DNA of 64,000 nt from a virus (Duplodnaviria; Caudoviricetes), in the IMG/VR virus record IMGVR_UViG_2721755553_000003, positions 236 through 64,235 of that record; one strand, written 5' to 3'. Shown piece by piece: positions 11,352-33,923 of this stretch. A program made the position numbers and the translations under genes. Under the pieces are notes generated by a model that was not told the origin of the DNA, did not search any database, and worked only from the letters and a program-made list of their open reading frames with translations. Position 1 is the stretch's first letter. Every line of letters begins with the position of its first letter.

Positions 11352-11369
11352 GTTCGCCCGTCGGGTCAA
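11352..11369 (-). promoter_or_regulatory. Putative late promoter element, copy 3 (TTGACCCGACGGGCGAAC)
   Basis: Identical over 18 bp to 24063-24080. Confidence 0.75.
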
Positions 11370-21398: not shown

Positions 21399-22037
21399 TC
21401 AGAGGTCGTAGGCCTGGATCTGGCCGGTGGAGGCGATGGCGTTCGATCGCCCGCGGAGCGCCCGCAGCTCGTCGTCGACGATCTGGGCCTGCATCTGCGC
21501 CATCGGCGCGCTGCGCAGGCTGTTCAGCGCGAGGTGCCACTTCGCCCGGGCCGCGATCAGGCCAGAGGCCTCGTCCGTCCAGGCGTTGGCCTCGTCGAGC
21601 GCTGGCGCCGGCAGGCGGACATGCGCCATGAGCCGGATCGTCCAGATGTCGGACGGCATTGGCCACAGGCGCAGGGACCGCTCGAAATACGAGTAGGCGC
21701 AGGGCTGAGACTGGCTCTCGGGCTGGTCCGCCCCCTCGATCGAGGCCTCGTCGATGCGCCGCAGGACGGTCGGGGTTGAACCGTCGAGCATCACCACGCT
21801 GTCGATCGCCAGCAGGTCGGGGATGCCGCTGGCATCGCCGGATGCGTAGACGTCCGACCCCGGGATAGTCTGGAACGTCACGTAGCCGTCGTTGAAGAAG
21901 AAGCGGTCCGGCTGGAAGAACCGGATCGCCCGGTCAACGGCGGTCGCGATCTGCGGGCCGAGGTCCGCGCGCTCGATGTCGTCCGCGATCTCCGCGTACA
22001 GATCGGCGAGCGTCGGCCGCCCGTCCTGTGTCGGCAT
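21399..22037 (-). CDS. Head-tail adaptor paralog
   Basis: LADLYAEIADDIERADL...I..A; similar size and N-terminus to its neighbour. Confidence 0.75.
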   Translation of the reverse strand: MPTQDGRPTLADLYAEIADDIERADLGPQIATAVDRAIRFFQPDRFFFNDGYVTFQTIPGSDVYASGDASGIPDLLAIDSVVMLDGSTPTVLRRIDEASIEGADQPESQSQPCAYSYFERSLRLWPMPSDIWTIRLMAHVRLPAPALDEANAWTDEASGLIAARAKWHLALNSLRSAPMAQMQAQIVDDELRALRGRSNAIASTGQIQAYDL

Positions 22038-22133
22038 CGGGCATCGTCTCCGTCTTCGAGGGCGACGGCGGGGGCTGCTCTGCCTCCGCCGCCAAGGCCG
22101 CCGCAGCGAGGTGCAGCAGCATCGAGCCGCGCA

Positions 22134-22535
22134 TCAGGCGCGCGGCGCGGCGTACGTGAAGACGACCTCGGCCGAGCCCTGCGTCGCAGCGGCGCCGGTC
22201 TGGGCGTAGCCGACGTACGGCACCGTGTCGGCGGCCAGGCGGCCGAGGGCGGTGGCGGTGTCGGGGCGCTTCACGCCGGCCGCGCCGACCGCGGAATCGG
22301 CCGCGGCGACGAGGTCGTTGCCGCCCGGCGCGGAGCCGACGGTGAGGGCGTTGGTGCCGCCGTTGAAGGCCTGCGTCACGGTGATGACCGTGGACAGGAT
22401 CTGCGCGCCGGCCGGGAAGGCGGCGGACATCGGGCGGCTGACGTCGTTGAACGTGACGGTGGTGCGGATCTCGCCGACCTGCCCGTGCAGGAGCGAGCGC
22501 ACCGCCGGCTTGGTCGGGCTGGTGTTGGTGGCCAT
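22134..22535 (-). CDS. Putative capsid decoration/cement protein
   Basis: 133-aa beta-rich protein immediately after the capsid gene. Confidence 0.6.
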   Translation of the reverse strand: MATNTSPTKPAVRSLLHGQVGEIRTTVTFNDVSRPMSAAFPAGAQILSTVITVTQAFNGGTNALTVGSAPGGNDLVAAADSAVGAAGVKRPDTATALGRLAADTVPYVGYAQTGAAATQGSAEVVFTYAAPRA

Positions 22536-22646
22536 GTCAGGCCCCTCTCGAAGATGGACGCGCAGCCGGACGGCTCACGCGCATGGGCAGAGGAGCCCGC
22601 AGCCGGTCAGGGCCGCGGGCGGGGTTCATGCGGGGAGGGAGGCCGA

Positions 22647-23750
22647 TCAGCCGGCGTTGACGGCGTAGGTCGGGATGACGATCACGGCGAAGTCGACGCC
22701 GTTGTAGGTCGTCTTCTTGATGCCCCAGATCGCCCAGGCCGAGACCTCGAGCTCGCGCTTGTGGTCGTACAGCTCCTCGTTCCAGCGGAACTTCTCGGGG
22801 CCGCCACCCTTGCCGAAGGCCGCCGTGACGGCCTGGGCGCCGAGCAGGACCGCGCGCCGGACGTTCGGCAGGATGGTCTTGCCGTCGGGAGCGACGCCGA
22901 GGGTGACCTGCTGGGACTCGCGCAGGATGACGTTGTTGTAGACACCGAGCGACCCGTCGAAGATCGGGTTCTTGGTGATCTCGCCGCCCTGCATCGCGGC
23001 CTTCTGGATGTCGAGCCACTGGCCCGCACCGGCGTTGATCCGGAGCTGGGTCACCTGGGTCGGGTGGATGTACATCACCCACATCTCGCCCATGCCGTCG
23101 ATCTTGACCGGACGCATCTTCGGCGCACCGGCGGCGCCGCCGGTCTTGGCGATCTCCACCGCGGCGTCGATCTGCGCCAGGGTGAGGCCGTCACCGGCAC
23201 CGAGGGCACCGTCGTTGGCCTTGCCGTTCGGACGGATCACCCGGGTGGCCGCGGTCACGACGTTGTTGCCGGTGAACTTCACGCCACCGGAGCCGTCGAC
23301 CTGCACCACGTTCGCCGGGGTGAAGCCGCAGGCGTGGTTGAAGAACGACACCGAGGTGCGGAGCTGGAACCAGTCGGACAGGCCGTCCTTGGCCTCGTCG
23401 CGCAGGTTGAACGGCACGCGCTGCTGGTCGATCGTGAACTTCGAGCGGATGCCCACGACGTTGCCGAGCTCGTCGATGGTGATCGCGTCGGACATGGTCG
23501 AGAGCTGCTCGCCATTGCCCTCGGCGCGGTCGGACGAGGTGAAGCCGTTGCCGGCGAGCTGCATGCGCAGGCCGAACGTGACCTTGTCGCCGACACCCTT
23601 CTGGGTCTCGGTCTTGATCTGGATGACGGACTTGGCCGACTCGCCGAACAGCGGGGCGATATCGAGGGCCTTGGTGGCTTCGACGGAGAGGCTCTTCGAC
23701 CAGAGCTTCGCCGCCAGCGCGTCGTTCAGCGCATAAGCGGTCACACCCAT
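22647..23750 (-). CDS. Major capsid protein (N4-gp56/DUF4043-like)
   Basis: KLWSK.L..E...; GDKVTFGLRMQL.G; E.YDHKREL; position after scaffold. Confidence 0.88.
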   Translation of the reverse strand: MGVTAYALNDALAAKLWSKSLSVEATKALDIAPLFGESAKSVIQIKTETQKGVGDKVTFGLRMQLAGNGFTSSDRAEGNGEQLSTMSDAITIDELGNVVGIRSKFTIDQQRVPFNLRDEAKDGLSDWFQLRTSVSFFNHACGFTPANVVQVDGSGGVKFTGNNVVTAATRVIRPNGKANDGALGAGDGLTLAQIDAAVEIAKTGGAAGAPKMRPVKIDGMGEMWVMYIHPTQVTQLRINAGAGQWLDIQKAAMQGGEITKNPIFDGSLGVYNNVILRESQQVTLGVAPDGKTILPNVRRAVLLGAQAVTAAFGKGGGPEKFRWNEELYDHKRELEVSAWAIWGIKKTTYNGVDFAVIVIPTYAVNAG

Positions 23751-23852
23751 GACGGGGATCCTTGAAATCGGGGGATACGGGAAGGTTCGTGCCGCGCGTC
23801 ACGTCGCGGGCAGACGAAAGCCGGGCCCCGGGTGACCGCTGGGGACGGTGGT

Positions 23853-23946
23853 CGGACGGGCGCCGTGACGTGGCGCGGACGGAGGCTGTGACGCGGCCGT
23901 GCGGATCGCGTGACGTGCGATCAGGCGGACGACAGGCTGACGTGCG
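23853..23946 (-). repeat. Four degenerate ~24-nt tandem units, several forming hairpins with ACGUCAC-type loops
   Basis: CGGA(C/T) at 23853, 23876, 23902, 23926, each followed by TGACG; stems gcgcc/ggcgc and gatcgc/gcgatc. Confidence 0.75.
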
Positions 23947-24062
23947 GAAGCGCCCCGCTGGAGAACAGCAGGGTGCAGCGCGTCGACCTGTCGGAAACTG
24001 GGGATGCTCGCAGACGGGGCCGGCTAGGCCCGCGCGTCTCGCGGCGGTAGTCCTTTGAGCGT

Positions 24063-24080
24063 GTTCGCCCGTCGGGTCAA
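24063..24080 (-). promoter_or_regulatory. Putative late promoter element, copy 2, upstream of the capsid leader
   Basis: TTGACCCGACGGGCGAAC on the minus strand, just after a GC hairpin ending the scaffold gene. Confidence 0.75.
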
Positions 24081-24125
24081 CAGTAAAGGTGCGGCGCGCG
24101 AGCGGTCCCGCGCGCCGCGGTTTGA

Positions 24126-25163
24126 TCAGGCGCCCATGAGCTGGCGGAGCTTCCGCCCATTGGCCTTCTGGAAGGCCGAGAACTCCTCGTCGGACATGTT
24201 GGCCAGCATCTCGGCTGTGACCTCACCCGCCGGCGACCCGCCGGCAGCCGACAGCGACATGCCGGGGCCCTTCTGGCCAGCCTCGACGCGGGCAGCCTTC
24301 TCCGCTGCGGTCTCGGACGGCGCGGCGGCAGGAGCGGCCTCCGCAGCCTTCGGGGCGAACCCACGGCTCTTGGCCAGCGCGGCGATCAGGGCGGCCGGCG
24401 ACTGGCCGCGCTGACGGGCCGTCTGGGCGAGGTTGAACTCCTCCTCCCGCACGGTCTGAACCGCCTCGGCCTCCGACATGCCGACGAGCTGCAGCTCGGC
24501 CACGCGACCCGAGAACAGGTGCTGGTAGGCGTCCGAGATCGTCGCGTCGGCGGTGACGGCGCGCTGGAGGTCCTGGCGGTAGAAGCCGATCACGTCGTTT
24601 CGCTCGTCCGCGGCCCTACGGTCCTCCTCGGCCTTCTTCTGGGTCTCGGTAAGCTGGGTCTGGCCGGTGCGGATCGCCTGGATTTGCTCCTCGAGGTACT
24701 TCGCGTAGCCGAAGATATCCTCGTTCGGATCCGGTACCTTGGCGGGCTCAGCGGCGGCCGCCGGCTGGGCCGGGGCGGCGGGGCGCTGCATCGCCTCGGA
24801 CAGGATGCGCAGGCGCTCGTCGCCGCGGGCGAACTTCTCCTGCAGCTCGCTGAGTTGGCGCTGGGCCGTCTTGCGAGCCTCACGCTCCTTATGGAACGCA
24901 CCATGCCGTACGAACCGGCCGCGGTTCTTCTCGGGATCGTCGGCATCCTCGGCATCCGGATCCACGACCTCGCCGGGCGCGGCAGCCTCACCGGCTGGGG
25001 CCGGGGCACCCTCGGGAGCGGCGGCAGGAGCGGGGGCGACCGTCGAGCCAGCCAGAGGCTCCAGATCGGTCGCGCCGCTGCGCATGGCATCCCATGCGGC
25101 CTGCTCCTCGGCGGAGAAGGCGTCGTCGGAGTCGATGGGGGCGGAGAAATCGCTGTCGATCAT
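24126..25163 (-). CDS. Scaffolding protein
   Basis: Acidic coiled coil; C-terminal LANMSDEEFSAF; between portal and capsid. Confidence 0.8.
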   Translation of the reverse strand: MIDSDFSAPIDSDDAFSAEEQAAWDAMRSGATDLEPLAGSTVAPAPAAAPEGAPAPAGEAAAPGEVVDPDAEDADDPEKNRGRFVRHGAFHKEREARKTAQRQLSELQEKFARGDERLRILSEAMQRPAAPAQPAAAAEPAKVPDPNEDIFGYAKYLEEQIQAIRTGQTQLTETQKKAEEDRRAADERNDVIGFYRQDLQRAVTADATISDAYQHLFSGRVAELQLVGMSEAEAVQTVREEEFNLAQTARQRGQSPAALIAALAKSRGFAPKAAEAAPAAAPSETAAEKAARVEAGQKGPGMSLSAAGGSPAGEVTAEMLANMSDEEFSAFQKANGRKLRQLMGA

Positions 25164-25230
25164 GTGGTCCAGGTCCTCGTGACGTGATGGGACGGAAGGC
25201 CGGTCTGACGCGCCGGCCGGGCGGAAGGGG

Positions 25231-25515
25231 TCAGGTGCGCCAGGTCATCCCGTCGGCGCGGGGGCGCCGCGGTTCGGCGATCGGCTTGAGCGGGGCGGGC
25301 AGGCGGTCGACCTTGCCCTCGGCGAGCAGCTCGGAGACGGCCCGCGCCGAGCCGTCGACCATCAGCATCGGGGTGCCGACCTTCAGCCACACCTCGGCGG
25401 CGGGCGGGTCGGTCATCGCAATCGCGATCATGCCCACGTTGTCGGGGGCCACGAACACGGGGTCGCCCTTCACCGCCGGATCGCCGGTAAAGGTACGAAG
25501 CTCGACGAGGCGCAT
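25231..25515 (-). CDS. Hypothetical protein (94 aa)
   Basis: ORF 3 nt after the portal stop. Confidence 0.65.
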   Translation of the reverse strand: MRLVELRTFTGDPAVKGDPVFVAPDNVGMIAIAMTDPPAAEVWLKVGTPMLMVDGSARAVSELLAEGKVDRLPAPLKPIAEPRRPRADGMTWRT

Positions 25516-25518
25516 GGC

Positions 25519-27609
25519 TTAGAAGCTCGGCTGGACCGGATAGAGCAGGGGTCCCGGCGCGGCGGCCGCGGGCAAGGCGTTGAACGGCGGCCGGTCGACG
25601 GGAATCGGCGTCGGGGCTGGGCCGCCGTGCTGATGCGGCGCGGCGGTGTTCCGACGCTCCTGCATCACCTGCGCGTGGCCGTGCGCGATCTCCAGCGTGC
25701 GCCCGACCGTGTCGACCTGGTCGTACTGGCTGAGCGAACGCTGGTGCTGGGCCTGCGCGCGCTTCAGGTCGGCGCCGGCCGCGGTCTCCTCGATCTTCGT
25801 GAGGGCCTCCTGCAGGGCGATCTGCTGCCGCTGCTGAGCCTCCGGATCCTGCTGCTGGCTCGCGAGCAGCTCGCGCATCTTCGCGACGAAGCTGTCCGGG
25901 AACGGCGAGTATGGCAGCACCTCGAGGAGCACCTGCGGCGTGATCATGTCTCGGACGATCGGGAGCACTGACACGAAGGTCTGCCACACCACCTGCTGCT
26001 GGTTCGGCGAGGACGGCGCCTCGTCGATCACCACGTCGTAATCACCCGCGGTCTTGTCGCGGAGGAGCGGGATCACCTGTTGGCCGGCCTGTCCCGTGAT
26101 GCGCACGAGGCGCCCGTCCGAAAGGTAGGTCTGGATGAAGTGGAGCCGCACCCGGCCGATGTGCTTCCGGGCCCGGCGCAGGGCGTTGAACATGGTGGCG
26201 AGGATGTTCATCGCCGCCTGCTTGCGCTGGTACTCCAGCACGCCGGCCTGCTGGTTCTGCTGCTGGCCGAGCAGCTCCATGTTCACGCCGGAGGAGTCCC
26301 GGATGGAGTTGATCGCGAACTCCATGAGCTGCCAGTGACCGGCGGGCATCACGGGCAGCGGCTTCTCCTTGATCGCGCCGGTGCGGAGCGAACCCGGGTT
26401 CACGAAGGTGACCGCGCCGGACTTGGCCGCGGTGCGCTCGAAAGCCGCCTGATCCTTCACGGCCGAGGTCTCGGCGAAGTAGCCGCCCTTAGCCTGCCGG
26501 TTCAGCATGTCGATGGTCTGCGACAGCCACTTGTTGGCGAAGCGCTGCGGGTCGCGCATCGGCCGCACGATGCCGAACCAGGAGCCGCGGTTCTGGTCCC
26601 GGTCGCCGGTCAGGAAGGCGTAGCTGAAGCGGTCGCCCGCCGGCGCGTCACCGACCGATCCCAGGATGATGTTGCCGAGGAAGGCGCGGCGGTACTTCCG
26701 CGTCATCCGGTGGAACACCTGCACCGGCATGCCGACCAGCTCGGCACGCTCCATAAGCACCTTCGCCTTGGCCGGATCCATCTCGATCAGCTGCTGGCTC
26801 TGCGGGTCGATCACCACCGCGACCCGCACCCGCTCCCACCACTGGCACTCGACGATGGTGACGCGCTTCGTGCCGCCGGTCTGGTCGGTATCGCCGAGCC
26901 GGTCCGAGCGTCGCTCACCCGGCTGGATCTGATGGTGCGGCTCGCCTCCGTCGCGGTCCTCGGCCCAGGCTGCATCCAGGTCGGCCGGGTCGACGTCCGG
27001 GAACAGGCTCTCGGCCTCGGCCCGGTCCATCGACTTCGCCCGCCAGACGCGCCGTGCGTCCGACAGGTTGCGCTTCGTGGCCGAGGCGTCCCAGAACATC
27101 TCCAGGGGGTTCACCCGGTCCTCGACGTAATCGCCGTCCGGGTTGGTCTCGTAATCGAGGCGCATCTCTACGACGCCGACGCCGCAGGTCACCGCGTCGA
27201 TGAAGGCATCGCTCTCCTCGTCCTCCGCGTCCGCCTCGTCGGCGAGGTAGCGGGAGGCCTCGGTGAGCACCTCGTTCAGCGCCGCATCGCCGATCTGGCG
27301 GGGCAGGTACTGGATGTCCTGGCGGGTGCTGACCTCGGAACCGGCGACAGCCCGGATCACCGGCAGGATGCGGTTGAAGGAGATCGGCGGACGGCCCTGC
27401 TCGCGAAGCGCGGCCTCATCCTGCGCAGACCACTGATGGCCGGCGACGAAGTCGAAGTCCTCGCGGGCCTCCGCGCGCCACTCCGAGGAGGCCTCGCGGT
27501 CGGCCCGGAACCACGTGCGAAGCTTCCGGAACAGCGCGGCCGCGTCGAGGTCGGCCTGATGGCGCGCCTGCTCCTCCGGCGACAGCGGAGCGTCGTCGGT
27601 ATCGGTCAT
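25519..27609 (-). CDS. Portal protein (P22-like)
   Basis: W..EAREDFDFVAGHQW...GRPPISFNRI; ATG 27609 overlaps the terL stop. Confidence 0.9.
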   Translation of the reverse strand: MTDTDDAPLSPEEQARHQADLDAAALFRKLRTWFRADREASSEWRAEAREDFDFVAGHQWSAQDEAALREQGRPPISFNRILPVIRAVAGSEVSTRQDIQYLPRQIGDAALNEVLTEASRYLADEADAEDEESDAFIDAVTCGVGVVEMRLDYETNPDGDYVEDRVNPLEMFWDASATKRNLSDARRVWRAKSMDRAEAESLFPDVDPADLDAAWAEDRDGGEPHHQIQPGERRSDRLGDTDQTGGTKRVTIVECQWWERVRVAVVIDPQSQQLIEMDPAKAKVLMERAELVGMPVQVFHRMTRKYRRAFLGNIILGSVGDAPAGDRFSYAFLTGDRDQNRGSWFGIVRPMRDPQRFANKWLSQTIDMLNRQAKGGYFAETSAVKDQAAFERTAAKSGAVTFVNPGSLRTGAIKEKPLPVMPAGHWQLMEFAINSIRDSSGVNMELLGQQQNQQAGVLEYQRKQAAMNILATMFNALRRARKHIGRVRLHFIQTYLSDGRLVRITGQAGQQVIPLLRDKTAGDYDVVIDEAPSSPNQQQVVWQTFVSVLPIVRDMITPQVLLEVLPYSPFPDSFVAKMRELLASQQQDPEAQQRQQIALQEALTKIEETAAGADLKRAQAQHQRSLSQYDQVDTVGRTLEIAHGHAQVMQERRNTAAPHQHGGPAPTPIPVDRPPFNALPAAAAPGPLLYPVQPSF

Positions 27610-28970
27610 TGCGCCCATCCGGAGCCTTCGGTGGTCTCAGCACGCTCGCGTCGGCGGCGCCGGTCGTAGCGGTCGTTCGGGGTTTCCGGCGGCGGGTCGT
27701 CCGGGCGAGGCTCGGCGATCGCGACGGCGAAGTAGCGGAAGGCGTCGGCCGCGTGGCTCGCCCAGTCGTGCAGTGGGTTCTTCGAGAAGGCCTGCGTGTC
27801 GGGGTCGACGTCGTACCGGTAGTTCCGGAGCGCCTGGAGCCCGTCAGCGCAGCGGTCCTCGTCGAAGAAGCACCGCGCGAACACCTGCCGAGCCGCGTCG
27901 ATGCCGGCGGCGACCGAGAGCTTCGGTGTGATCCGCACCTCGTGCCCGGCGGCCCACATCTGCTGCTCGATCGTGCGCTCCGAGGCGAGGAGCTCGTTCT
28001 GCGCGTCGTGCGGGAGCCAGTGCTCCCCGTAGACGTACCCGCAGTCTGCGGCCCGCTGCGTGAGCATCTCCAGGTAGTGACCGAGCGCGAAGCCGCGGTT
28101 CTCGTAGAAGTCGATCAGCCGGAACTCGAAGCCGACGATCTGGGCGAACCAGATGCTCGTCTTGTCGGCCCGGCCCAGATCCCAGAACGTGTGCACCCGT
28201 TTCGACGGGTCGAAGGGGACCTTCCGGAACCGGCCTGCCCGCGTCGCGGCCAGGATCTCGTGGGTGTAGATCGCGCCGTCGAGGACCTGCTTGCAGTGGC
28301 CCTCCCAGACGGTCTCGTAACCGACCGGGTCCCGGGCCAGGAGGTCCTTCGCCTCCTGCTGCAGCTCCTCCGGAAACCACGGATTGTCGTACCAGTTGAT
28401 GGTCGCGACTTCCGAGTTCGTCGGCGGGTGCGTGACGAACCGCTTGTACGTCTCGTCCTCGGCCAGCTCCGGGTTGAAGCTGATCCAGATCTCGGAGCCC
28501 GGCTTGCGGATCGTCGGGATGAGTGTGTCCCACGACGACTTCGACACCGTGCGGGCCTCCTCGACCCAGCAGATGTCGACGCCCTCGTAGGACTTGATCT
28601 TCGTGACGTTGTGCCGGAGCCCTTCGAACGAGAACTCGGTGCCGTTCGCCCCGATGATCCGGGTTTGCTGCACCTCGTAGAAGGCGCCGAGTCCCAGCTT
28701 GTCCGCCTGGTCCTTCAGCAGCGCGTGCACGCTGTCCGCGGTCGAATTCTGGAACTCGCGGGCACAGAGGATGCGGAGCTTCTTCGAGGCTCCGAGGATC
28801 AGGAGCGCACGGGCAAACGCCCAGGATTTCCCTCCGCCGCGACCGCCCTTCGCGATCTTGTACCGCTTCGGCTGGAACAGGAACGCCAGCTTGCGCGGGA
28901 ACTCAGCTTGGTTTGCCGGGGCCGTCGATGAAGGTGACGGCGATGCCGCCGGCGAGGAGGGGCTGGCCAT
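27606..28970 (-). CDS. terL: Terminase large subunit (PBSX-like); start uncertain
   Basis: KGGRGGGKS Walker A; CWVEEA Walker B; WDLG..D nuclease; HDWASHAADAFRY. Confidence 0.93.
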   Translation of the reverse strand: MASPSSPAASPSPSSTAPANQAEFPRKLAFLFQPKRYKIAKGGRGGGKSWAFARALLILGASKKLRILCAREFQNSTADSVHALLKDQADKLGLGAFYEVQQTRIIGANGTEFSFEGLRHNVTKIKSYEGVDICWVEEARTVSKSSWDTLIPTIRKPGSEIWISFNPELAEDETYKRFVTHPPTNSEVATINWYDNPWFPEELQQEAKDLLARDPVGYETVWEGHCKQVLDGAIYTHEILAATRAGRFRKVPFDPSKRVHTFWDLGRADKTSIWFAQIVGFEFRLIDFYENRGFALGHYLEMLTQRAADCGYVYGEHWLPHDAQNELLASERTIEQQMWAAGHEVRITPKLSVAAGIDAARQVFARCFFDEDRCADGLQALRNYRYDVDPDTQAFSKNPLHDWASHAADAFRYFAVAIAEPRPDDPPPETPNDRYDRRRRRERAETTEGSGWAQ

Positions 28971-32602: not shown

Positions 32603-32678
32603 TGGCTGGAACGGCAGGGCTCGAACCTGCGACCACCCCGTTAACAGCGGGGCGCTCTACCGACTGAGCTACATTCCA
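32603..32678 (-). tRNA. tRNA-Asn (GTT), CCA encoded
   Basis: 76 nt; acceptor UGGAAUG/CGUUCCA; anticodon stem CCCCG-CT GTT AA-CGGGG; T-loop TTCGA. Confidence 0.95.
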
Positions 32679-32750: not shown

Positions 32751-32768
32751 TTTCGCCCGACGGGTCAA
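32751..32768 (-). promoter_or_regulatory. Putative late promoter element, copy 1 (TTGACCCGTCGGGCGAAA)
   Basis: 16/18 match to the other two copies; extra half-site CGACGGGCGAAC at 32780-32791. Confidence 0.72.
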
Positions 32769-33008: not shown

Positions 33009-33923
33009 TCAGGCCTCCCCGCCGACCCGGCAGCGCGCCGCCACGATGTCCCGCACCCGCCCGCGACCCGCGATGGCTCGCTGGACGTCCGGCTTGGCCT
33101 GCGGGGCGTAGCGCGCTTCCTCGGCGCCCCAGTACTGCCCGTGGCCGGCCGGGACAGCTCGCCCGCGCGCGTCGGTCTCCTCGCCGGTCTTCTGGCCCTG
33201 GAAGAACCGCTCCTGCACATTCGCCACGCCCTCGGCCGCGAAGTCCTCGTCGAGGTTCTCCATCAGGATCCGGAAGTGCTCCGCGATGTACGCGGTGCCG
33301 CGGTCGCCGCCCTTGCCGCGGGCCTCGGCGAACTGCGCGAAGGTCTGCCGGCCGGTGAGGACCTCGTGGAGGAATCGCGCCCCGGGGACGCCGACGGCGC
33401 GGACGACCTTGTCCTTCAGCTTCGCCACCAGCCGGGCGTCGTCGATCGCGTAGATGACCGACAGCTCGTGAGCGATGGTCATGTCCTTCGAGCCGCGCAC
33501 CCCGAAGTCCATGGAGCCGAGCCTGGCGCCGGAGGCGCGCTCGAAGATCGCTTGGACCTGGCGCCCGACCTCGTACTGCGAGACGGTGAGGCGCCCGTGC
33601 GAGCGTTCCATCTCCAGCACGTCGACCCGGCGGTTGACAGCGGCGAGGCTACGGCCGCCCGGGGTCCAGGGATCGTCGACCGCGACGGCCGCGGTCTCGA
33701 TCGGGCCCCGCTTGCCCCGGACCGGCTTCGACAGGTCGGTGCGCGGGTCGAAGGCGCCGGCGTGGTCGTACCGATCGCCGCGCGGATCCCGGCGCCGCTC
33801 CGGCTTGGCCGCGCGCACGTGGGTGTGGGTGGCCGGCGAGCCGGCGAGGGTGATGGCCTTGGTCCTGGACGCTGCCACGGTGGTGCCCCTTGAGGCGGTC
33901 GACCTTCCGTCGATCCGTGACAC
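33009..33923 (-). CDS. Candidate late transcription regulator (DUF6456-like from memory)
   Basis: L...GRL...Q..VG......FERA pattern; Q-equivalent position before the late promoter. Confidence 0.55.
   Translation of the reverse strand: MSRIDGRSTASRGTTVAASRTKAITLAGSPATHTHVRAAKPERRRDPRGDRYDHAGAFDPRTDLSKPVRGKRGPIETAAVAVDDPWTPGGRSLAAVNRRVDVLEMERSHGRLTVSQYEVGRQVQAIFERASGARLGSMDFGVRGSKDMTIAHELSVIYAIDDARLVAKLKDKVVRAVGVPGARFLHEVLTGRQTFAQFAEARGKGGDRGTAYIAEHFRILMENLDEDFAAEGVANVQERFFQGQKTGEETDARGRAVPAGHGQYWGAEEARYAPQAKPDVQRAIAGRGRVRDIVAARCRVGGEA

Follow-up and report, generated by a model that had tools for sequence, protein, structure and literature searches.

Why does the 375-bp gap between the scaffold-like open reading frame (ORF), which ends at 24126, and the capsid ATG at 23750 of a Methylobacterium-type provirus carry one short inverted repeat after another, and what might these repeats do for the capsid gene that follows? 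The window analyzed here, that is, the whole stretch of 64,000 nucleotides (nt) corresponding to positions 236 to 64,235 of the IMG/VR record IMGVR_UViG_2721755553_000003, covers nearly the whole 64,235-bp provirus record; its late genes lie on the minus strand, as do all features located below. Comparison of related leaders has shown that the gap encodes a conserved folded non-coding RNA on the capsid-sense strand, associated with the PF13252 capsid family.

A first-pass annotation of the window had reported five hairpins on the transcribed strand of the gap, and all five are indeed present, letter for letter and in place. Direct reading and alignment define H1 (GAUCGC-ACGUCAC-GCGAUC, 23904-23922), with a 6-bp stem and a 7-nt loop; H2 (GGC-CGCGUCACA-GCC, 23884-23898), with a stem of 3 bp, extended to 4 bp in some relatives; and H3 (GCGCC-ACGUCAC-GGCGC, 23860-23876), with a 5-bp stem and a 7-nt loop preceded by a CCGUCC spacer. 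Farther downstream lies H5 (CGCG-ACGUGA-CGCG, 23795-23808), for which relatives have a GCGG/CCGC-type stem and mostly a GACGCAC loop. The interval between H3 and H5 is filled by a nearly invariant block (23812-23859, columns 74-122 of the core alignment A3) consisting of a C-rich spacer, the CCG/CGG hairpin H4 (23835-23849), GGGGCCCGG and a CGUC spacer, within which a pseudoknot between CCCC and GGGG is possible. By contrast with these, the weak hairpin H0 (GC-ACGUCA-GC, 23936-23945), which the annotation had counted into the array, is found only in the window and in the related loci L001 and L003. For the tandem units, given as four of ~24 nt in the annotation, Tandem Repeats Finder returned a period of 23 nt with 2 copies (81% matches, 23853-23897). 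The array begins ~120 nt into the leader and ends ~45 nt before the capsid ATG, leaving the Shine-Dalgarno (SD) sequence uncovered. By itself, the heptamer ACGTCAC shows no enrichment in the window (11 copies vs 7.1 expected); among the 147 CGTCA sites scanned, a 7-nt ACGUCAC loop closed by at least 5 pairs occurs only in H1 and H3, 45 nt apart on the same strand. H1, H2 and H3 are kept as local hairpins in the minimum-energy fold of the whole gap. However, both strands of the gap fold better than shuffled sequences (z = -3.4 for the opposite strand), and folding energy thus does not pick the strand.

The decisive evidence for H1 and H3 is comparative, namely, compensatory changes across related leaders. 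Capsid homologues preceded by the 330-nt leader turned up in 29 of 146 Methylobacterium genomes and also among IMG/VR proviruses, and 21 distinct leader sequences were aligned over their full length (A2) and over the 145-nt core (A3). In the core alignment, 99.2% of the cells of H1 are paired, with changes on both sides in 3 of its 6 pairs, and 97.1% of the cells of H3 are paired, with two pairs showing 6-7 compensatory cells and the types GC, CG, UA and AU, so that 5 pairs of the two hairpins have changed on both sides. The covariation score was reached by none of 500 column shuffles, and when the 3' partners were slid by 1-3 columns, pairing fell from 92% to 28-41%. Furthermore, RNAalifold finds H1 and H3 independently. 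The covariation across capsid leaders that the first-pass annotation had proposed as a check is therefore present. For H2, 74% of the cells are paired in three dependable pairs, none of which has changed on both sides, and the loop sequence CGUCA is invariant in all 21 leaders. For H5, 87% of the cells are paired and one pair has changed on both sides, in an ambiguous alignment register. The pairs of H4 and the surrounding C-rich block never vary, and pairing there can thus not be judged. Loop forms among the relatives include ACGUCAC, CCGUCAC, ACGGCAC and ACGCAC, conserved but not invariant. The claim that the loop is retained is too strong for H3 and H5.

Several further properties of the alignment characterize the conserved element. 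Wobble cells include 6 G-U on the capsid-sense strand vs 1 A-C, and the sense RNA is therefore favored. One-base insertions and deletions in loops and spacers exclude a coding role. Across the same loci, nucleotide identity to the window is 72-91% for the 145-nt core vs 74-86% for the capsid coding sequence (CDS); thus, selection on the non-coding core is as strong as that on an essential structural gene. A search of 151 Rhizobiales genomes with the full 145-nt model returned, outside the known locus, only false positives in coding regions and nothing genuine beyond Methylobacterium proviruses, and short BLAST matches of the array elsewhere in Methylobacterium genomes were dismissed as chance matches inside genes. 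That the loops pair with a 5' GAGACG box or with the initial codons of the capsid gene was also considered and rejected, because such complementarity is not maintained across lineages.

The heptamer of the loops recurs in the leader of a second head gene. Upstream of the scaffold-like ORF (ATG 25163), lineage comparison delineates an element (25174-25218) made up of a covarying hairpin (25198-25218), a conserved CCGUC spacer and a linear ACGUCAC (25179-25185) that abuts the SD sequence GAGGA, so that ACGUCAC occurs in two head-gene leaders and, in the scaffold leader, beside the ribosome-binding site. Among five lineages, the stem of this hairpin shows compensatory changes in L084, L081 and L100, and its loop is not conserved. 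ACGUCAC-GAGGA is kept in 4 of the 5 lineages in which both parts are visible, L003 having ACGUUAC; the extract of L081 ends at ACGUCACG, before the scaffold SD.

Related units are found well beyond Methylobacterium. Weak matches of the 145-nt model in distant capsid loci fell directly upstream of the capsid gene, and inspection by eye of these distant units revealed a pyrimidine-rich UCG spacer followed by a hairpin of 4-7 bp with loops such as GCGUUAA, GCGUCAA, GCGUAAAA, ACGCAC and ACGGAC. In distant phages with a PF13252-type capsid, two to four hairpins on the sense strand, with loops of the CGUNA type, lie 40-200 nt ahead of the capsid start, and at least 2 such hairpins are present in 28 of 57 non-redundant distant leaders vs 6.2% of 2620 control windows. 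The density of units peaks at -200 to -1 and does so in the sense orientation only (69 vs 19 antisense), over a background near 0.13 per 100 nt, and among the hairpins of the distant leaders that have 7-nt loops, the form N-C-G-U-N-A-N shows a 17-fold enrichment. The comparison of G-U with A-C stem extensions in the distant leaders did not discriminate between the two (76 vs 69 units). No comparable second peak of units was seen before the scaffold genes of the distant phages. Moreover, a strict unit pattern applied to IMG/VR with no reference to the capsid picked out 14 contigs, 9 of which have a unit 100-160 nt upstream of the same capsid family (8 confirmed by tblastn; the capsid gene of L151 was recognized only by its first CDS bases). 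The H3 unit CC-ACGNNAC-GG also occurs in distant capsid leaders; judged by its CCGUCC spacer and CC-ACGUCAC-GG core, H3 of the window is the local form of the distant unit. Paired hairpins with identical CC-ACGGAC-GG tops precede the capsid gene in several uncultured phages and a Hyphomonas provirus (L089:2817-2938, L030:2809-2910, L143:4782-4900). The loops of these hairpins fit both the CsrA/RsmE consensus and the ANTAR hexaloop rule, and no CsrA gene was found in those records.

Where does the leader begin? Upstream of the array, a promoter-like box (24040-24080), singled out by its recurrence and conservation, consists of TTGACC, a spacer that contains the palindrome CCCGACGGG and, 17-18 nt downstream, a weak hexamer resembling a -10 element. 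Its 18-mer TTGACCCGACGGGCGAAC (24063-24080) is nearly invariant in the 21 leaders and has 3 copies in the window vs 0.11 expected, all on the minus strand; the copies, each with TTGACC and the palindrome CCCGNCGGG, lie at 11352-11369, before a lytic-transglycosylase-like tail gene, at 24063-24080, and at 32751-32768, ~70 nt before the phage tRNA-Asn. We infer a promoter function for the box at 24063-24080 from this pattern. The start of the leader (24001-24045; alignments A1 and A2) bears a conserved GCGAGACG box, which is also present at the box copy at 32768, and a GGGCC/GGCCC hairpin (24017-24031), and the first ~70-80 nt of the leader are also found alone in many Methylobacterium genomes. 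Between the scaffold gene and the box, relatives have 1-2.5 kb of unrelated genes, and the leader is conserved from the box onward; thus, the promoter box, the leader and the capsid gene travel as one module. The gap therefore holds a capsid-sense leader, as the first-pass annotation had it, but this leader probably starts at its own promoter-like box and is not a simple continuation from the scaffold gene. The place where scaffold gene and capsid leader meet is an insertion hot spot (L004:1448-2660, L005:184-2670, L087:900-2680, L127:1798-2373), at which Rhizobium phage RHph_Y1_10 has an HNH endonuclease gene.

The boxes are accompanied by terminators. The copies at 11369 and 32768 are each followed within 60-110 nt, ahead of the first gene, by a terminator hairpin and its U-run. 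In the capsid leader, an 8-bp hairpin with the degenerate U-run CGCUUCC (23953-23973), present in the fold, is aligned in A2 opposite a clean intrinsic terminator (GCCCGC..GCGGGC followed by U5) in L004, L005, L082 and L111-113. The terminator scan of 22000-26000 found no terminator-like site. The array of these six relatives lies downstream of the terminator of the leader and is thus not an antiterminator of that terminator, which makes this part of the first-pass annotation's antitermination proposal unlikely; the other two box copies have no hairpin array. The three-box layout nevertheless suggests late control by antitermination, and the boxes and terminators, as opposed to the array, resemble the PR'-tR'/Q system of lambda: a conserved element is located between -35 and -10, an intrinsic terminator follows within 60-110 nt, and the arrangement is repeated at the heads of late transcription units. 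Unlike in lambda, there are three copies rather than one, and no Q-family protein was recognized among the scanned ORFs. A 304-amino acid (aa) ORF (33009-33923) immediately precedes the first late-type promoter box, the place that Q has in lambda; it is a candidate late regulator and gave no sequence match in Pfam, PHROG, NCBIfam or PDB. The tRNA-Asn (GUU, 32603-32678) follows one of the promoter boxes at ~70 nt and is preceded by a terminator-like hairpin that has a GAAA loop.

The genes around the leader form a P22-like head module. The large terminase gene (27606-28970) is followed by the gene for a P22-type portal (25519-27618; Pfam match PF16510), a 94-aa ORF (25231-25515) without a fold or family match, the Ala/Glu-rich scaffold-like ORF of 345 aa (24126-25163), also without a family match, and the major capsid gene (22647-23750), assigned to PF13252 (E = 2.7e-78) and to PHROG 334, major head protein; a 133-aa ORF and SU10-type adaptor genes come after it. 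The capsid ATG (23748-23750) and the SD sequence AAGGA (23759-23763) were read from the sequence; in relatives, the element equally far from the ATG is GAAGG or AGAGG. Capsid relatives include Rhizobium phage RHph_Y1_10 (52%), Sinorhizobium PBC5, Burkholderia Bcep22, a Bcep22-like phage (Lessievirus) of the same capsid family, and many Ralstonia and Erwinia podophages. Just 3' of the scaffold stop codon, a perfect 10-bp GC hairpin (24091-24118; inverted repeat I7, 100% complementary) is retained in the fold; it is a terminator-like element or the 3' end of the upstream message, and it lacks a clean U-run and was not returned by the terminator scan. Just past the capsid stop codon, a GC-rich hairpin, GCCCGC...GCGGGC, is followed by UCCUCU (22595-22620) and may act as a partial terminator or 3' stabilizer that raises the capsid message over the downstream genes. 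The 94-aa ORF occurs only in close Methylobacterium proviruses and is predicted to form five strands and a helix with a basic tail; an atlas search placed it in unnamed clusters only.

Is this RNA already known? For 23751-24125, Rfam 15 gave no hit up to E = 10, and for the whole window the tRNA was the sole hit, in line with the first-pass annotation, which had recognized no known motif; there was no relevant match in 20 related loci, and the distant leaders L089 and L030 yielded only noise. Likewise, a literature search found no described capsid-leader motif of this kind. The leader is thus uncatalogued with respect to Rfam 15, a comparison outside which lie the 10,006 uncurated csRNA candidates (PMC10690425). 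Structured leaders before phage head genes are a recognized, uncharacterized class, which includes GP20-a and GP20-b (Rfam RF02991, RF03003) and, in the csRNA catalogue, candidates upstream of a major capsid family (PMC10690425). Like these, the leader described here is a conserved folded RNA directly upstream of a head-morphogenesis gene, detected by comparative genomics; its capsid family is a different one, and no Rfam 15 model scores in the gap. As far as sequence comparison goes, it appears to stand out in the known class by its unusually good comparative support and by a broad, previously unreported unit motif tied to PF13252 capsids.

Several known regulatory RNAs share features with the array. 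CsrA/RsmE operators likewise consist of several short hairpins with one loop motif in an mRNA leader and a further copy beside an SD, which here is that of the scaffold gene, but the array does not overlap the capsid SD. The CsrA/RsmE consensus is CANGGANG, which the CC-ACGGAC-GG loops of some distant leaders fit; the loops of H1-H3 (ACGUCAC, CGCGUCACA and ACGUCAC) lack GGA, and ACGGCAC is present in some relatives only, so that a CsrA/RsmE operator was rejected for the window. A complete 39-kb phage with ACGGAC loops also has no CsrA, and Bcep22 gp54, used as a phmmer query against every six-frame ORF of the loci, matched nothing but itself. Bcep22 gp54 and JC1 gp47 are CsrA homologues that are encoded immediately upstream of the capsid gene and are considered morons, with their role unexplained (PMC9144972). 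In Bcep22 (L128:2211-2500), gp54 ends 95 nt before the capsid gene, and the leader contains GGA hairpins (CAGGAUG; AUCGGAC in the loop) and the SD GAGG; the Bcep22 CsrA may act on its own capsid message. A lambda-type nut site, with one boxB, a GNRA-like pentaloop and an early promoter, does not match 7-nt loops in 3-4 copies in a late head module, and a put-type RNA as in HK022 was rejected, for the terminator of the leader itself, by the position of the array in the six relatives with a clean terminator. ANTAR dual hexaloops are at odds with the 7-nt loops of the window, with the relatives' ACGCAC, which has no G at position 4, and with the lack of a terminator overlapping H3 or H5. H1-H3 are followed by C-rich spacers and no U-run and are thus not intrinsic terminators; type III toxin-antitoxin repeats were dismissed, given that the units are 81% alike over 2 copies, their stems differ and the downstream gene is that of the capsid.

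The array also has features in common with the MS2 and PP7 coat-protein hairpins, the T4 gp32 and RegA sites and the P22 scaffold system, in which the mRNA leader of a structural or assembly protein, or of its partner, would be bound by that protein so that synthesis keeps pace with assembly. The MS2, PP7 and T4 operators are single sites at the start codon, whereas 3-4 sites, read from sequence, are located 45-170 nt upstream here. The scaffolding gene of P22 is subject to post-transcriptional autoregulation, for which, to our knowledge, the target RNA has not been defined at this level. The T7 gene 10 leader and the Escherichia coli ompA 5' untranslated region, structured 5' stabilizers of strongly expressed messages, share with the capsid leader a dedicated promoter (a probable one in the capsid leader), 5' hairpins, an unstructured enhancer-like stretch and a strong SD; in these, however, it is the stability of stems at the very 5' end that counts, whereas the capsid leader has conserved loops and an array placed ~120 nt in.

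What, then, might the hairpins do? We place slightly short of an even chance on their being reiterated operators for a sequence-specific RNA-binding factor that would set the translation of capsid and scaffold or the fate of the mRNA. Conserved loops on covarying stems, conserved single-stranded spacers, the presence of several copies, the copy at a ribosome-binding site and persistence across very distant phages all argue for operators, and sequence-specific recognition is suggested by the loops staying similar while the stems change, by the invariant CGUCA of H2 and by ACGUCAC beside the scaffold SD. A precedent within the clade comes from the CsrA-type gene immediately upstream of the capsid gene in Bcep22 and JC1 and from the GGA hairpins in the Bcep22 leader. 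Under the operator hypothesis, the capsid message would have an untranslated leader of ~300 nt, probably starting at the phage late-type promoter (24063-24080), which, after a 5' hairpin region, would fold into the array of small hairpins H1, H2, H3 and H5, each showing an (A/C)CGUCAC-type loop, with C-rich CCGUCC spacers between them. Loops and spacers would jointly provide repeated operator sites, recognized by an RNA-binding factor that is sequence-specific and probably oligomeric; occupancy of these sites would set the translation and/or the lifetime of the capsid message, and the one related site by the scaffold ribosome-binding site would extend the control to the scaffold message, coupling the synthesis of head proteins to a common signal. 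Candidates for the ligand are the free scaffold protein, the 94-aa protein (25231-25515) and a host factor; free scaffold is the most attractive of these, given the autoregulation in P22 and the conserved order of scaffold gene, leader and capsid gene. Of the cis-regulatory RNA proposed by the first-pass annotation, the conserved, covarying sense-strand hairpins in an untranslated leader stand as observed, while the trans-acting ligand and the regulatory outcome are what we infer from them.

Several observations weigh against operators of this kind. A classical occlusion repressor is not obvious, because the array ends ahead of the uncovered capsid SD, and the loops of H3 and H5 vary considerably among relatives. 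No RNA-binding domain was found among the 38 phage ORFs scanned, and CsrA (PF02599) was detected neither in the provirus, at E up to 10, nor in five Methylobacterium host genomes. The 94-aa ORF was tried as a CsrA-like protein and rejected: its AlphaFold2 model is of low confidence (pLDDT of 56), Foldseek returned no match below E = 0.2 and hhalign gave a probability of 0.07% against a phage CsrA profile. Two metatranscriptome contigs, one of 328 nt from peat (23555-23881), which covers the 5' end of the capsid gene together with the leader up to and including H3, and one reaching from the capsid CDS into the leader (23543-23795), are a weak hint of transcription of the leader, as DNA carry-over is possible and the contigs carry no information on start, end or strand.

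The same data can be read in other ways. One possibility, unlikely but to be taken seriously, is a processing or stability element, in which an endonuclease would enter or cut at the spacers (YUUCG or CCGUCC) and the downstream hairpins would protect the new 5' end, such that the capsid message outlives the scaffold/portal message with no dedicated binder. This would suit the location of the distant units inside a polycistronic scaffold-capsid message, the last of them usually ending 35-60 nt before the ATG, with an A/C-rich stretch devoid of structure and then the SD after it, as well as the 3-4 hairpins before the gene of the capsid, the protein needed most, vs one before the scaffold gene. 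However, protection needs stable stems rather than a particular loop sequence, yet the loops are what is best kept across distant lineages, and the stems are short (3-6 bp). We consider it rather improbable that the array serves control of elongation, the C-rich, G-poor leader, in which hairpins separate YC-rich spacers, being either a site where Rho loads and keeps the capsid operon silent as long as the RNA polymerase is unmodified, or a put/nut-like element that renders the polymerase resistant to termination over the ~22 kb of late genes downstream. The composition of the leader RNA (44-46% C and 28-29% G vs 35% and 32% in the capsid CDS) points in this direction, as do the excess of C over G in 41 of 57 distant leaders vs 17 of 57 upstream coding stretches, the promoter-proximal terminators at 11369, at 32768 and in the capsid leaders of relatives, which suggest antitermination, and the terminator-like hairpin after the capsid gene (22595-22620). 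Against it stand the array of the relatives, which cannot antiterminate a terminator upstream of itself, the lack of a promoter or terminator at the distant units and of an array at the other two box copies, the conserved loops, for which rut sites have no known need, and the fact that no antiterminator gene was recognized among the scanned phage ORFs.

Two further explanations carry very little weight. Three ACGTCAC boxes phased at 22-23 bp could be sites for a DNA-binding late regulator, with the inverted repeats incidental, and the regular spacing, the palindromes in the nearby promoter-like box and the better-than-shuffled fold of the opposite strand would be compatible with this; but compensatory changes in the flanks are meaningless for duplex DNA, it is on one strand only that wobble variants read G-U, the distant motif is strand-specific, and a distance of 120-190 bp separates the promoter box from these boxes downstream of it, so that such sites are highly improbable. 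The hairpins also recall anticodon arms. GUCAC, GUUAA and GUAAA are the 3' parts of the anticodon loops of Asp, Asn and Tyr tRNAs, and all three occur among the loop forms; with stems of 5-6 bp and the enriched N-C-G-U-N-A-N loops copying G34-U35-N36-A37 of Asp, Asn, Tyr and His tRNAs, a GUN anticodon-arm mimic or decoy would engage a loop-reading enzyme or nuclease, and the arm of the phage's own tRNA-Asn reads CCCCG-CUGUUAA-CGGGG. The geometry of H1 and H3 fits a mimic of the thrS-operator type, but position 33 is C throughout, and among 213 hairpins with 7-nt loops in the 57 distant leaders, none has the tRNA-like N-U-G-U-N-A-N loop. Position 32 is often a purine, the 6-nt loops ACGGAC and ACGCAC are at odds with a mimic, the phage showed no gene for tRNA modification or for a nuclease, and the resemblance was noticed after the fact; we give such mimicry scarcely any credence. 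The remaining probability falls to an array without function.

If the hairpins are operators, they may belong to a larger group. We regard as quite doubtful, but worth stating, that they are the local form of a widespread, uncatalogued operator, the unit of which joins a pyrimidine-rich UCG spacer to a short hairpin (loop N-C-G-U-N-A-N or ACGGAC) in the capsid-mRNA leaders of Bcep22/PBC5-like podophages of Alpha-, Beta- and Gammaproteobacteria, and through which a conserved head-assembly protein, for example, free scaffold, throttles capsid translation until procapsid assembly consumes that protein. How tailed phages make capsid protein in large excess over the other head proteins, and whether assembly feeds back on its synthesis, is understood for very few of them. 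The leader described here adds one more family to the structured leaders before phage head genes and offers a compact conserved RNA target with mutational handles (loops vs stems) and a probable dedicated promoter, and relatives occur in many hosts that can be cultivated (Rhizobium, Burkholderia, Ralstonia, Erwinia), all of which makes the question directly testable. A possible job is also suggested for the CsrA-like 'moron' by the capsid gene in Bcep22-like phages. If true, the widespread operator would give double-stranded DNA phages a general circuit of feedback from assembly, one in which the RNA target is defined.

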